DNA from: Escherichia phage vB_Eco_ORH_001
Sequence record: PV656001.1
Direction: 5' to 3' (one strand)
Length of the DNA stretch: 44,456 bases
Made by a program: the position numbers and the translations under genes. The notes beneath the pieces were generated by a model, which worked only from the letters and a program-made list of their open reading frames with translations, made no database searches and was not told the origin of the DNA. Shown here one piece after another: positions 30,590 through 32,692 of the stretch (position 1 is the first letter of the stretch; the number at the start of each line of letters is the position of its first letter).

Positions 30590-30745
30590 TTACCCGGTGA
30601 TATCTCCGCCGTCTACCAGTGCTAACGGGATTCTCACTTCACCGTTGAATGTTTCGGCGTACCAGAACTTCTCACATTGCGTTACGCTGAAAACATCAAG
30701 TTCTGATGTAGCGCCTGTCTTCCAGTACACCGTTAACTTTTTCAT
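30590..30745 (-). CDS. small protein (51 aa), hypothetical
   Basis: ATGA-coupled to the upstream ORF; translation MKKLTVYWKTGATSELDVFSVTQCEKFWYAETFNGEVRIPLALVDGGDITG. Confidence 0.3.
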   Translation of the reverse strand: MKKLTVYWKTGATSELDVFSVTQCEKFWYAETFNGEVRIPLALVDGGDITG

Positions 30746-31002
30746 ACATCACCCTCCTCTCGTGCGATACGTTGCTCAGTTTTAGTGATACCCCGGCGGG
30801 TGAATAACACAGGGCTTGTCTTAACGTGCGTCATGAGACGGTTGTTATAAATTACGTGGCGCTCACAGTTAACGTCTTTACTGTACTTCGCAATCGTCAT
30901 TTCGTTGAGGCCGGTTTGTCGGCATGTCTCGGCCATCGTGCCAAATTCTTTAATCAGGTTCGGAATGCTGGTAATCATCCTAAGAAATTCCTCGTCGTCC
31001 AC
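30742..31002 (-). CDS. hypothetical early protein (86 aa)
   Basis: ORF with GTG start in the early operon. Confidence 0.4.
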   Translation of the reverse strand: MDDEEFLRMITSIPNLIKEFGTMAETCRQTGLNEMTIAKYSKDVNCERHVIYNNRLMTHVKTSPVLFTRRGITKTEQRIAREEGDV

Positions 31003-31145
31003 ATTGCATTTGGGTATTTATTATCGCGGTCCTGCACTACGGCAATCATGTTACCGCGCTGCACCAGGCAGAAGTGCCGTTGTTGATCGCCGTTGTACCG
31101 GCGCCAGATTGCTTCTTCTATTGCTGCGTTAATGTCACTGAACAT
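30975..31145 (-). CDS. small protein (56 aa), hypothetical
   Basis: RBS GGAGG; translation MFSDINAAIEEAIWRRYNGDQQRHFCLVQRGNMIAVVQDRDNKYPNAMWTTRNFLG; overlaps the 5' end of 30742..31002. Confidence 0.25.
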   Translation of the reverse strand: MFSDINAAIEEAIWRRYNGDQQRHFCLVQRGNMIAVVQDRDNKYPNAMWTTRNFLG

Positions 31146-31147
31146 AA

Positions 31148-31378
31148 TCAATCCTCCATACTTAATAGCACGTATCCAGGCAGGTAAGCACCTACGTCCG
31201 CAACATGAATAACGCGGCGGTAAACGATACGGCCTGTGTATTCACCGTTTTCATATTCTCGCAGGCACAGAGTGTCGTCTTCCTTGAAATCGCGGTCGTT
31301 TAATCGCAGTTCCGCCAGCTTGATTCCTGCCATAACAGGTTCAAAATGCTCAGGTAATATCTTTAGTTCGTGAAACAT
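31148..31378 (-). CDS. DUF3850-like (ASCH/PUA-like) small protein
   Basis: KILPEHFEPVMAGIKLAELRLNDRDFKEDDTLCLREY matches my recollection of the DUF3850 pattern; no search run. Confidence 0.45.
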   Translation of the reverse strand: MFHELKILPEHFEPVMAGIKLAELRLNDRDFKEDDTLCLREYENGEYTGRIVYRRVIHVADVGAYLPGYVLLSMED

Positions 31379-31382
31379 ACTC

Positions 31383-31574
31383 TCACCCCACTATCTCATC
31401 ACCGAGCCACGCCGTTTCTCGTATATCGTCGACCACACAAGCGGCGTGTTCACGGCTAATTGCAAAAATGTAGAAGCTGAACTTCTTCCCGTCGGCGTCG
31501 ATGTGGTTAACCGAGTAAGGTTTCCACAGGACGTCATCGATAACTACTGGCTCAGGCGCTTTCATCGTCAACAC
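31383..31574 (-). CDS. hypothetical early protein (63 aa)
   Basis: ORF in the coupled early operon. Confidence 0.4.
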   Translation of the reverse strand: MLTMKAPEPVVIDDVLWKPYSVNHIDADGKKFSFYIFAISREHAACVVDDIRETAWLGDEIVG

Positions 31575-31755
31575 CGTAATCGAACTCAGGGGAAAGTAGT
31601 AGCTTCTGCTCTTCTTCCTTCAATTTCACGAGCAACAATTTAAACGCCTCCAGTTGAAACTCACCGTTAATCGACAGTTGGCCGCCTAACGTCTGTTTCT
31701 CCGACTCAAGCACCAGAATGCGGCGCTCGAGCGATGCTATTGTGATTTTAGGCAT
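31552..31755 (-). CDS. hypothetical early protein (67 aa), coiled-coil
   Basis: ORF in the coupled early operon. Confidence 0.4.
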   Translation of the reverse strand: MPKITIASLERRILVLESEKQTLGGQLSINGEFQLEAFKLLLVKLKEEEQKLLLSPEFDYGVDDESA

Positions 31756-31991
31756 TATTCGGCCCCCTCATAAAAATCGCCATTTCGGTAATCCCCATCA
31801 AAATCGTCAGAAATAGCGCGCCCCTTGTTCAGATTGAAGTGGTTAATTAGTCCACGGCGTGTCTCGTAAAGCGACTCCACCATTTGCTCAGCTACCGCGA
31901 TTTTAGTATTCAGGGCGTGCATCACGTGGCGGATGTCTACGCCGCCGTTAACAGCCTCTACCATCATCTTTTCGTATTCACGGTCGGTCAT
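31755..31991 (-). CDS. hypothetical early protein (78 aa)
   Basis: ORF in the coupled early operon. Confidence 0.4.
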   Translation of the reverse strand: MTDREYEKMMVEAVNGGVDIRHVMHALNTKIAVAEQMVESLYETRRGLINHFNLNKGRAISDDFDGDYRNGDFYEGAE

Positions 31992-32206
31992 AACTCGTGC
32001 CCCATAACATGCGGTGTCATGCCGCGTTTCTTGAAGTACAAGCGCGCAAAACCCTCCGCCACCTTAACGTCAGACTCAATGCCCTCCCACTCGATAACGT
32101 TAACTAATCCTGCACGTACAAATAGTAGATTGTACCAACGGACACGGCGCAAATGGGTTGAGTTATACATAAGATTGTCACCAATTATGAATTTATACTT
32201 TTTCAT
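31988..32206 (-). CDS. hypothetical early protein (72 aa)
   Basis: ORF with ATGA overlaps at both ends. Confidence 0.4.
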   Translation of the reverse strand: MKKYKFIIGDNLMYNSTHLRRVRWYNLLFVRAGLVNVIEWEGIESDVKVAEGFARLYFKKRGMTPHVMGHEL

Positions 32207-32361
32207 TCTTTACGCTCTCCCCACATGCGATTGAGATACTTGTTCTTGTCCGGTCCCGGGAAACTGTTACGTTTCATCAGTTCCTCGCGTGTCGGGAACG
32301 GGGTGTGACTGACTTTACGGCCTACTCGTAAGGGTTGGCTTACTTCACCGTGTTCGCTCAT
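32203..32361 (-). CDS. small protein (52 aa), hypothetical
   Basis: RBS GGAGAG; translation MSEHGEVSQPLRVGRKVSHTPFPTREELMKRNSFPGPDKNKYLNRMWGERKE; ATGA-coupled. Confidence 0.3.
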   Translation of the reverse strand: MSEHGEVSQPLRVGRKVSHTPFPTREELMKRNSFPGPDKNKYLNRMWGERKE

Positions 32362-32507
32362 TTCTTCTCTCCTGCATAAGCTGCTTTCAGTGTCTGCATT
32401 GCAGCGAACCAGAACACGTCCGCGGGAATGCTGTTGCTCAGGTTACTAACGGCGATGCGCGCCATCAGTTGTGCGTCTTTTAATGCTTCGATATCTGTGA
32501 TTTTCAT
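32358..32507 (-). CDS. small protein (49 aa), hypothetical
   Basis: Translation MKITDIEALKDAQLMARIAVSNLSNSIPADVFWFAAMQTLKAAYAGEKK; ATGA-coupled at both ends. Confidence 0.3.
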   Translation of the reverse strand: MKITDIEALKDAQLMARIAVSNLSNSIPADVFWFAAMQTLKAAYAGEKK

Positions 32508-32692
32508 TTATCATCTCCGTAAAAAGCCGCCACTTGCTCAACAATAATCATAAAATCATCCATACTCACGTTAACACTAACTGATTCGTCGGTATCTCCG
32601 TCTGTACAAATTATAAGTAATGTCCCGTCACGGCATTTCTCTATCTCCATGAAATCACCCCAGTTATCGGTATGCTTAATCTTAGTCATCAT
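32504..32692 (-). CDS. hypothetical early protein (62 aa), first gene of the operon
   Basis: First ORF downstream of promoter 32729..32757. Confidence 0.45.
   Translation of the reverse strand: MMTKIKHTDNWGDFMEIEKCRDGTLLIICTDGDTDESVSVNVSMDDFMIIVEQVAAFYGDDK

Follow-up and report, generated by a model that had tools for sequence, protein, structure and literature searches.

In phage lambda, the region between P and Q holds the nin genes (ninB to ninI), which, like those of the P22-like nin/ea regions, are small, packed, often overlapping and dispensable delayed-early genes of variable content. The lambda nin region has neither a promoter nor a terminator of its own and is read from pR under N antitermination. 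The late operons of lambdoid phages carry accessory DNA of a second kind, the morons, extra genes that bring along a promoter and a terminator, and T4-type phages reportedly shuffle small early open reading frames (ORFs) in hyperplastic regions by means of repeated promoter/stem-loop cassettes. Here, we describe a locus that resembles each of these systems in part, namely an operon of small genes at 30590..32692 on the minus strand of Escherichia phage vB_Eco_ORH_001 (PV656001.1). The whole stretch of DNA analyzed, 44,456 nucleotides (nt), is referred to below as the window. The region is probably an accessory-gene cassette that lies between the holin-endolysin genes and terS in all Guernseyvirinae examined (Kagunavirus and Jersey-like phages), would be expressed by host sigma-70 polymerase and would deliver its products before the late ones.

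The interval 30590..32692 is tiled by 11 consecutive minus-strand ORFs, numbered o1 to o11 below, and every one of them is already annotated in PV656002.1 (Escherichia phage vB_Eco_Hrm2, 44,455 bp), a record that matches the window end to end in reverse orientation and circularly permuted. Counting ORFs from 45 amino acids (aa) upwards, 99.7% of the strand is covered; in 500 dinucleotide shuffles, coverage averaged 20.6% and never exceeded 56%. Six of the ten junctions are ATGA overlaps, one is a TAATG overlap, one is an overlap of 14 nt (o6/o7) and two are gaps (+4 and +2), and GGAG-type ribosome-binding sites are found upstream of the ORF starts. The median pairwise ratio of nonsynonymous to synonymous substitution rates (dN/dS), calculated by the Nei-Gojobori method on codon alignments, was 0.04-0.31 for each ORF tested, short ones included (3-35 distinct sequences); o4, which has no relatives among the loci compared, was left out. 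Since dN/dS is low across all of those tested, the ORFs are real genes. In addition, 10 of the 11 match PHROG families, which are built from many phages. A first-pass annotation of the window, made from the letters alone, had described about ten tightly coupled small ORFs; the autonomous, coupled operon is real and its genes number 11. The statement that nearly every boundary is an ATGA overlap was too strong, tight coupling itself being correct, and the three ORFs under 60 aa that were said to be missing from the ORF track are in fact four (o2, o3, o9, and o11), absent only from a track with a 60-aa cut-off and all present in PV656002.1. These four are conserved too, and show purifying selection.

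With terS as the query, IMG/VR yielded 50 loci, 34 of which span endolysin to terS; with the window added, 35 loci were compared, and their ATG-initiated ORFs of at least 35 aa fell into 57 clusters, ~40 of them rare. Among these loci, the endolysin-terS interval that contains the cassette ranges from 1.2 to 3.0 kb, and the backbone genes follow the fixed order o2-o3-o5-(o6)-o7-o9-o10. Genes o2, o3, o5, and o10 occur throughout all loci and make up the minimal, Jersey-like form of the cassette (o2-o3-o5-o10); o7 and o9 are additional fixed genes in Kagunavirus. The rare clusters are associated with six variable slots, located before o2, at o2/o3, o3/o5, o7/o9, and o9/o10, and after o10, and four of these are filled in the window by its own cargo, o1, o4, o8, and o11. 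Cargo content therefore differs between related phages, in line with the variable cargo for which the first-pass annotation had suggested looking. Considering that o4 is rare in Kagunavirus and has relatives in ~150-kb myoviruses, and that the G+C content of the operon (0.47-0.49) is below that of its lysis and packaging flanks (0.53-0.57), a horizontal origin of the cargo is indicated.

Some cargo also bears traces of how it may have been exchanged. The cargo clusters c24 and c34, which occupy the o2/o3 slot in L003, L005, and L008, have exact 18-19-nt copies of GCAGGAGAGAAGAAATGA on both sides, a junction composed of the next gene's ribosome-binding site, the previous gene's last codons and the overlapping stop/start. 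Because this junction is duplicated, the c24 and c34 proteins end in AGEKK, as does o2. A degenerate copy of the junction accompanies cargo c31, the 3' end of o4 resembles the 3' end of o3 (CGCATGT..GGGG..ATGA), and the remaining cargo types share just the generic GGAG...ATGA pattern. For a few cargo types, these junction sequences appear to serve as short homologies for gene exchange.

The putative promoter of the operon, P2 (32757..32729, minus strand), consists of a -35 element TTGACT (32757-32752), a 17-nt spacer and a -10 element TATATT (32734-32729), and agrees with the consensus at 10 of 12 positions. The pattern TTGACT-17-TATATT has its sole exact match in the window at this site, and P2 is found once per locus in all 35 loci; its hexamers never differ, whereas its spacer does. 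Judging from spacing, transcription would start near A32722, leaving a 5' untranslated region of ~30 nt, and by its match to the consensus P2 should be usable by unmodified host RNA polymerase. At the opposite end of the operon, the terminator T2 (30555..30580, minus strand) comprises a hairpin at 30580..30561, with stem AAGCCCUC/GAGGGCUU and loop UACG, and the tail UUCUGU; hairpin and U-rich tail together have a folding energy of -19.2 kcal/mol (z = -3.0). Since its tail holds just 4 T, T2 is overlooked by a simple terminator scan. It is likewise present in 35/35 loci, and a compensatory change distinguishes the Jersey-like stem, AAGCCCGC/GCGGGCTT vs. AAGCCCTC/GAGGGCTT. The proposal that the operon has a promoter and terminator of its own thus held for every locus compared.

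Just outside the operon, a terS promoter-like element (30528..30557, minus strand; TGTACA-18-TATAAT) stands at the start of the packaging/structural unit. This element is kept in 35/35 loci as well, and has a poor -35. In both genera the -35 position is occupied by TGTACA, which Jersey-like loci repeat at -10, and in three of these loci (L042, L043, and L051) the element reads TGTACA-N17 or N18-TGTACAAT. The repeated TGTACA at terS may be a late-activator binding site.

Beyond the general features of its genes, the operon shares two particular genes with the lambda and P22-like regions, a NinH homologue (o10) and a DUF2737 gene (o3) that in HK75 and P22 lies beside abc2. However, the lambda nin region is situated between the replication genes and Q, whereas the operon described here is situated between the lysis genes and terS; just 2 of its 11 genes have lambdoid homologues, and the window phage is virulent. 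Like a moron, the operon has its own sigma-70 promoter and terminator, is seated between late functions and has a G+C content below that of its neighbors. Yet morons are usually single genes that are present or absent among relatives and expressed from a prophage, whereas this operon is present as a whole in 35/35 loci, it is the inner genes that vary, and there is no lysogeny. The T4-type hyperplastic regions are similar in that small genes of no known function are exchanged at short repeats, as with the 18-19-nt junction duplicated around some inserts here. In those regions, however, the repeat is a promoter plus stem-loop for each gene, while in this operon it is a translational junction and concerns few cargo types.

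Apart from a DUF3850-like protein, none of the products had been considered recognizable from sequence inspection. That assignment stands, and two more can now be added, DUF2737 (o3) and a NinH-like protein (o10). The universal backbone begins with o2 (32358..32507, 49 aa; phrog_2180; dN/dS 0.15), which is found in 35/35 loci and belongs to a family present in 640 phage records, some of them outside Guernseyvirinae (Deseoctovirus C1, Serratia phage Otaku). The next backbone gene, o3 (32203..32361, 52 aa; dN/dS 0.20), matches DUF2737 (PF10930) with 38.9 bits against a cut-off of 25, residues 20-46 aligning to profile positions 22-48 of 53. Clustering of ATG-ORFs recovered o3 in 34/35 loci, and tblastn identified it in the last one, L030 (88% identity, full length). 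Homologues of o3 occur in HK75, HK446, HK106, Sf101, and P22 (ORF-56); both in the HK75 left early operon and in the P22 erf-abc fragment, the homologue is the next gene after abc2. One record labels a DUF2737 protein NinZ; we rejected this identification, since the HK75 and P22 homologues adjoin abc2 and not the nin region. Backbone gene o5 (31755..31991, 78 aa; phrog_1402; dN/dS 0.19) is universal among the loci and restricted to Guernseyvirinae; its N-terminal ~57 aa are conserved and its C-terminus is variable. Jerseyvirus records describe homologues of o5 as 'NinH-like', a label that we also rejected since neither BLASTP nor hhalign (1.3%) ties o5 to NinH or o10.

Of the less widespread backbone genes, o6 (31552..31755, 67 aa; phrog_9023; dN/dS 0.31) is frequent (27/35 loci) and varies in length, and o7 (31383..31565, 60 aa; phrog_10509) and o9 (30975..31145, 56 aa; phrog_5407; dN/dS 0.04) belong to the Kagunavirus backbone. 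The structure model of o7 (predicted local distance difference test score, pLDDT, 82) shows a small beta-beta-beta-alpha-beta fold, and a deeper homologue search with this protein gave close relatives only. The same was true of o9, whose model (pLDDT 65) was too poor for a fold search. In four loci o9 is swapped for a divergent 93-aa allele. Its homologues (41-49% identity) occur in N4-like Gamaleyavirus phages, where they belong to the pre-late region at the left end and lie ~1.8-2 kb from the terminus of the genome; one of them, PhAPEC7 gp5, sits between gp2-like and gp6-like genes.

The remaining universal gene, o10 (30742..30978, 78 aa; dN/dS 0.09), encodes a divergent homologue of NinH. 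BLASTP aligned o10 to lambda NinH with 31% identity over 51 aa (E = 5e-9), and the o10 family profile matched lambda NinH in hhalign with a probability of 95.3% (E = 2.4e-8, 50 columns); the match to the NinH Pfam family PF06322 was 21.5 bits, below the cut-off of 29.8 (E = 2.3e-4, profile positions 7-56 of 60). Lambda NinH binds and bends DNA, and a mutational map of its residues is available (PMC7166090). The conserved residues of o10 are T28, K31, H41, and H51, of which H41 and H51 are invariant. These two correspond to the NinH dimerization residues H45 and H55, and R56-G57 aligns with R62-G63 following a 10-residue insertion. Among the residues by which NinH contacts DNA, T32 and K35 are kept as T28 and K31, while T14, E26, and A30 (R in one relative) take the places of N18, R30, and R34, respectively. 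A profile search of the PDB with the o10/NinH alignment did not reach Fis. Fis-like DNA binding by o10 is possible, not assured.

The cargo genes of the window are of diverse distribution. The first ORF of the operon, o1 (32504..32692, 62 aa; dN/dS 0.20), precedes o2, occurs in 5/34 related loci and gave no Pfam or PHROG match. The o3/o5 slot is filled by o4 (31988..32206, 72 aa; phrog_10786), a rare gene that was found in none of the 34 related loci; among 50,697 phage records, the only Kagunavirus with o4 are Hrm2 and 536P11, and its next relatives, 43% identical, are in the ~150-kb myoviruses CR9, PBES 02, and DU_PP_IV. The o7/o9 slot contains o8 (31148..31378, 76 aa; dN/dS 0.05), a minimal DUF3850/ASCH (PUA-like) domain that matches PF12961 over its full length with 66.8 bits (cut-off 22.9) and PF04266 with 22.3 bits (cut-off 21.2); residues 2-75 match PDB 3iuw (E = 8e-9), and the gene is intact in 7/35 loci (the window and six relatives). 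Finally, o11 (30590..30745, 51 aa; phrog_22569; dN/dS 0.05) follows o10, and was detected in 3/34 related IMG/VR loci and in phage fBC-Eco01. A scan of ten of the ORFs against NCBIfam gave no matches.

With regard to when the operon is expressed, P2 carries an operator-like dyad, ACTAG-TTGA-CTATT (32749..32762, minus strand), that lies over its -35 element and is one base off AATAG-N4-CTATT (ACTAGttgaCTATT in the window); at the same position, Jersey-like loci have AATAGttgaCTAGT (AATAG-TTGA-CTAGT). The AATAG-N4-CTATT palindrome is greatly overrepresented in the window, with 18 strand-hits at about nine sites vs. 2.75 expected, a number reached in 0/100 shuffles. It lies within the spacer of TTGAC-type promoters ahead of replication genes (2326, 40922, 40966, and 43279) and over the -10 of three TTGCAC-type promoters, at 37331 (first small-ORF cluster), 35559, and 15765 (inverted module). 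A listing of the motif as AATAG-N4-CTATT(AT) gives window positions 2336, 15763, 27130, 32747, 35559, 35885, 37333, 40932, 40976, and 43289. No palindrome is present at the terS promoter. The motif matches the 'phage promoter' consensus reported for fBC-Eco01, and the record of the window phage has no annotated RNA polymerase gene. We suggest that the palindrome is probably the operator of a regulator, for which the early helix-turn-helix regulator encoded at about 37782..37964 and o10 are candidates. Because P2 shares it with the promoters of replication and early genes, the operon would be co-regulated with them.

Expression of the operon as an 'early', i.e., pre-late, unit is accordingly plausible in outline: P2 is of the near-consensus sigma-70 type, and homologues of o3, o9, and o10 reside in pre-late regions of lambdoid and N4-like phages, lambda ninH being in the nin region. 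The one transcriptome of a relative, RNA-seq of phage vB_Eco_K1B4 sampled at 5-120 min with a latent period of 30 min, places its NinH gene, 023, in the 'middle' class (PMC12645636); we equated gene 023 with the o10 homologue by size and position. This class comprises 42/57 genes and includes NinH together with replication, lysozyme and capsid genes, and the 'early' class comprises four genes, among them 008, a helix-turn-helix regulator beside the divergent region (PMC12645636). The class shared by NinH and the replication genes would fit pre-late expression, but it gives no support to 'early' itself.

In the mechanism that we propose, host RNA polymerase with sigma-70 would initiate at P2 and produce a single mRNA of ~2.2 kb that ends at T2, and T2 downstream and a further terminator upstream, T1, would insulate the operon from the lysis and packaging genes. 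The eleven genes would be translated as a chain by way of stop-start overlaps or very short gaps. Unrelated small genes would be swapped into and out of the slots, some of them through recombination at the ribosome-binding-site/ATGA junctions. The products would probably be non-structural, of a dispensable type, and made before the late proteins alongside the replication genes, and nucleic acids or host proteins would be their likeliest targets. In this view, o10 would be a small helix-turn-helix protein that forms dimers and resembles NinH and Fis, o8 would bind nucleic acids by means of its PUA-like domain, and o7 would be a small binder or inhibitor.

Several observations weigh against this account. 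Six of the seven backbone proteins are without an informative homologue, and o10 retains just 2/5 of the lambda NinH DNA-contact residues (tested or selected ones), with R30 changed to E, which makes its DNA binding uncertain. The cassette stands in the middle of the late-gene strand, between lysis and packaging genes and far from the divergent control region, and the coarse K1B4 classes fail to separate the operon from late genes. Junction duplications are confined to 2-4 cargo types. We infer the transcript ends, the timing and all molecular functions of the operon, whereas its gene structure and conservation, the purifying selection on its genes, their family assignments and the variability of the cargo are shown.

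The first-pass annotation had read the operon differently, as an early small-protein operon of the kind in which host-takeover and anti-defence proteins are usually found. It would then be an immediate-early island, with products that inactivate the defence systems of the host or shut off its functions. Small genes and hypervariable cargo would suit such an island, but a conserved backbone makes up more than half of the operon, and searches of Pfam, PHROGs, and NCBIfam, none of which is a dedicated anti-defence library, linked none of the ORFs to a known takeover or anti-defence family. A near-consensus sigma-70 promoter would be suitable as well, yet the early class of K1B4 holds the helix-turn-helix regulator of the divergent region and NinH is 'middle'. 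One relative of o7 is labeled 'putative RNA polymerase inhibitor', a label that we could not confirm: o7 has no sequence similarity to T7 Gp2 (PDB 2LMC, 2WNM; E = 0.16 over 24 residues) and no Pfam, PHROG or PDB sequence link to it, and although Gp2 is a viral Foldseek match of the o7 model (E = 0.11), the unrelated PaaB, Dmd, and anti-CRISPR proteins match equally well or better. Fold matches in the operon are in general generic and weak, and a general inhibitor of host polymerase would be odd here because the PV656002.1 record has no annotated RNA polymerase gene. Overexpressed lambda NinH is toxic (PMC7166090), which would agree with a takeover function, whereas BASEL Kagunavirus isolates are reported to be very susceptible to restriction-modification systems and, to a varying extent, to Old. 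Altogether, the takeover and anti-defence content attributed to the operon was not borne out, and we consider an island of this kind doubtful. Since no family was matched and the BASEL isolates are sensitive, we regard anti-defence as a possibility for single cargo genes rather than as a result.

Another conceivable role is in DNA maturation and packaging, whereby a NinH-like bender and its partners, produced together with the late proteins, would aid terminase at a pac site in or near terS. The cassette is directly upstream of terS in 35/35 loci, but a conserved terminator and a separate promoter of another type come between the two, and the palindrome at P2 ties the operon to replication and early promoters instead of terS. 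Likewise, NinH binds and bends DNA (PMC7166090), but the DNA-contact residues are only partly kept in o10, and lambda ninH is unlinked to packaging genes; that the K1B4 NinH shares the 'middle' class with structural genes would fit this role. We consider it improbable. It might finally be argued that the short ORFs are chance frames in a non-coding or regulatory spacer, considering that several are under 60 aa and without a family of known function. This reading, to which we give almost no credence, had already been refuted by the dN/dS values found in every tested ORF and by an ORF coverage that no shuffle approached; ribosome-binding sites ahead of the starts and the PHROG families of 10/11 ORFs are equally contrary to it. 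An accessory-gene cassette expressed before the late genes is hence the explanation that we favor.

The wider setting of the operon was taken from the gene table of PV656002.1. The window phage is a Kagunavirus (subfamily Guernseyvirinae), as are its close relatives. A divergent control region is located near window position 37,300, with replication genes on the plus strand; read along the minus strand, the genes are an initial cluster of some eleven small ORFs, a pair of holins, endolysin (32876..33379), the operon, terS (29917..30501), terL, portal and other virion genes, and PHROG matches back the identities of the genes that flank the operon. On the minus strand at 37684..37655, there is a near-consensus promoter (TTGAAA-18-TATAAT, 11/12) with a terminator-like hairpin ~200 nt downstream (37455..37435). 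This promoter and hairpin (37435..37684) are antisense to the first plus-strand genes of the divergent control region, and the element may give rise to an antisense or leader transcript.

Two further observations concern the head-gene cluster. PV656002.1 lists a 551-aa 'hypothetical protein' on the plus strand (window 22885..24540) that has no family match. On the opposite strand are a major head protein (22927..23976; phrog_247, E = 4e-117) and, on the same strand as the latter, a scaffolding protein (23979..24734; phrog_206, E = 1e-55), both unannotated in that record. The 551-aa call is most likely an annotation error from a long antisense ORF over capsid genes. Within the same cluster, spanin genes (phrog_2536 and phrog_5672) are found at 24763..25258 on the minus strand, ~7.6 kb downstream of holins and endolysin, so that the lysis functions occupy two separate sites. 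The idea that a small basic ORF of the operon stands in for absent spanins was rejected, since the spanins are present at this position.

Between endolysin and P2 there is a short unit that may be transcribed separately. It comprises a promoter, P1 (32879..32851, minus strand; TTGACA-17-GATACT), a candidate CU-rich RNA of ~68 nt (about 32847-32779, minus strand, between P1 and the end of T1) whose transcription we infer, and T1, a strong terminator upstream of P2 that consists of a hairpin (32811-32787, minus strand) and a U9 tract. P1 is followed by a CU-rich, unstructured segment of ~40 nt, then by U-rich sequence and the T1 hairpin with U9. The unit of P1, RNA and T1 is found once per genome in 35/35 loci, and when IMG/VR was searched for its core pattern, 43 contigs matched, once each, of which all but three are 35-45 kb long. 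In an alignment of 18 distinct sequences, TTGACAC and ATACT are invariant and the P1 spacer differs between genera and in L022; CATCCCTCT is nearly invariant, TTTATCCCGG is invariant save one position, and one stem pair covaries. The authors of the fBC-Eco01 record predicted P1, P2, and T1 too. The U tract of T1 is T9 in the window (32779..32787) and T8 in PV656002.1, the sole mismatch within 32693..32880 when the two were compared base by base, and this accounts for the one-base difference in length between the window and that record; it is probably a homopolymer sequencing uncertainty.

In 13/35 loci (e.g., L004, L018, L029, L033, and L052), extra DNA of 90-340 nt lies between endolysin and P1 as a further variable slot, which may hold a small ORF in some loci and ends in its own terminator, AAACCCGGACCGCGAATCCGGGTTTTATTTT, in 7/9 loci inspected. 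Since endolysin is split from P1 in these 13 loci and has its own terminator in 7 of the 9, T1 is not simply the endolysin terminator. In L011, ~100 nt with inverted repeats TTAGGCGAGTAGT...ACTACTCGCCTAA (~225..330 of the locus) are inserted directly after the P1 -10, inside the candidate RNA. GenBank CDS0006 (39 aa), which is drawn over the candidate RNA, is probably spurious because indels between genera break its frame.

An unstructured part followed by a U-rich stretch and a hairpin with a U tail is the typical layout of Hfq-dependent small RNAs. The first ten bases past the likely start, AUCACCUCCU, occur only in the candidate RNA within the window and are identical to the 3' end of E. 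coli 16S rRNA (anti-Shine-Dalgarno). A search of Rfam with 30000..33500 gave sub-threshold matches only, at or near both terminators and the 3' part of o11, some of them to CU-rich small RNAs. Tested against 81 translation-initiation regions of the phage, the candidate RNA paired no better than shuffled seeds did, and no specific phage target emerged; 4/81 starts were one base off owing to the 1-nt indel between the record and the window. We put forward, as a speculation that is more probably wrong than right, that P1 drives an Hfq-type small RNA of ~68 nt and that, separately, P2 is a member of a regulon of about nine promoters with AATAG-N4-CTATT. If so, a small RNA of Guernseyvirinae would base-pair at the ribosome-binding sites of mRNAs from the phage or its host, perhaps including those in the neighboring operon.

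Overall, the operon is an ordinary, subfamily-wide accessory cassette whose core is conserved and whose cargo can be exchanged; its genome had already been deposited in GenBank, and for that reason it changes little. In the literature, no functional study of the cassette was found. What is new is the map of fixed genes, swappable cargo and slot positions, and of their insulation by conserved signals, which could guide experiments with Kagunavirus and Jerseyvirus. Phages of both genera have applications in therapy and engineering. Natural sites for the insertion of payloads or the deletion of genes would be the slots, together with the frame formed by the insulated promoter and terminator. Follow-up is likelier to pay off for the candidate small RNA, for the operator that several promoters share and for the misannotated capsid genes than for the ORFs of the operon.

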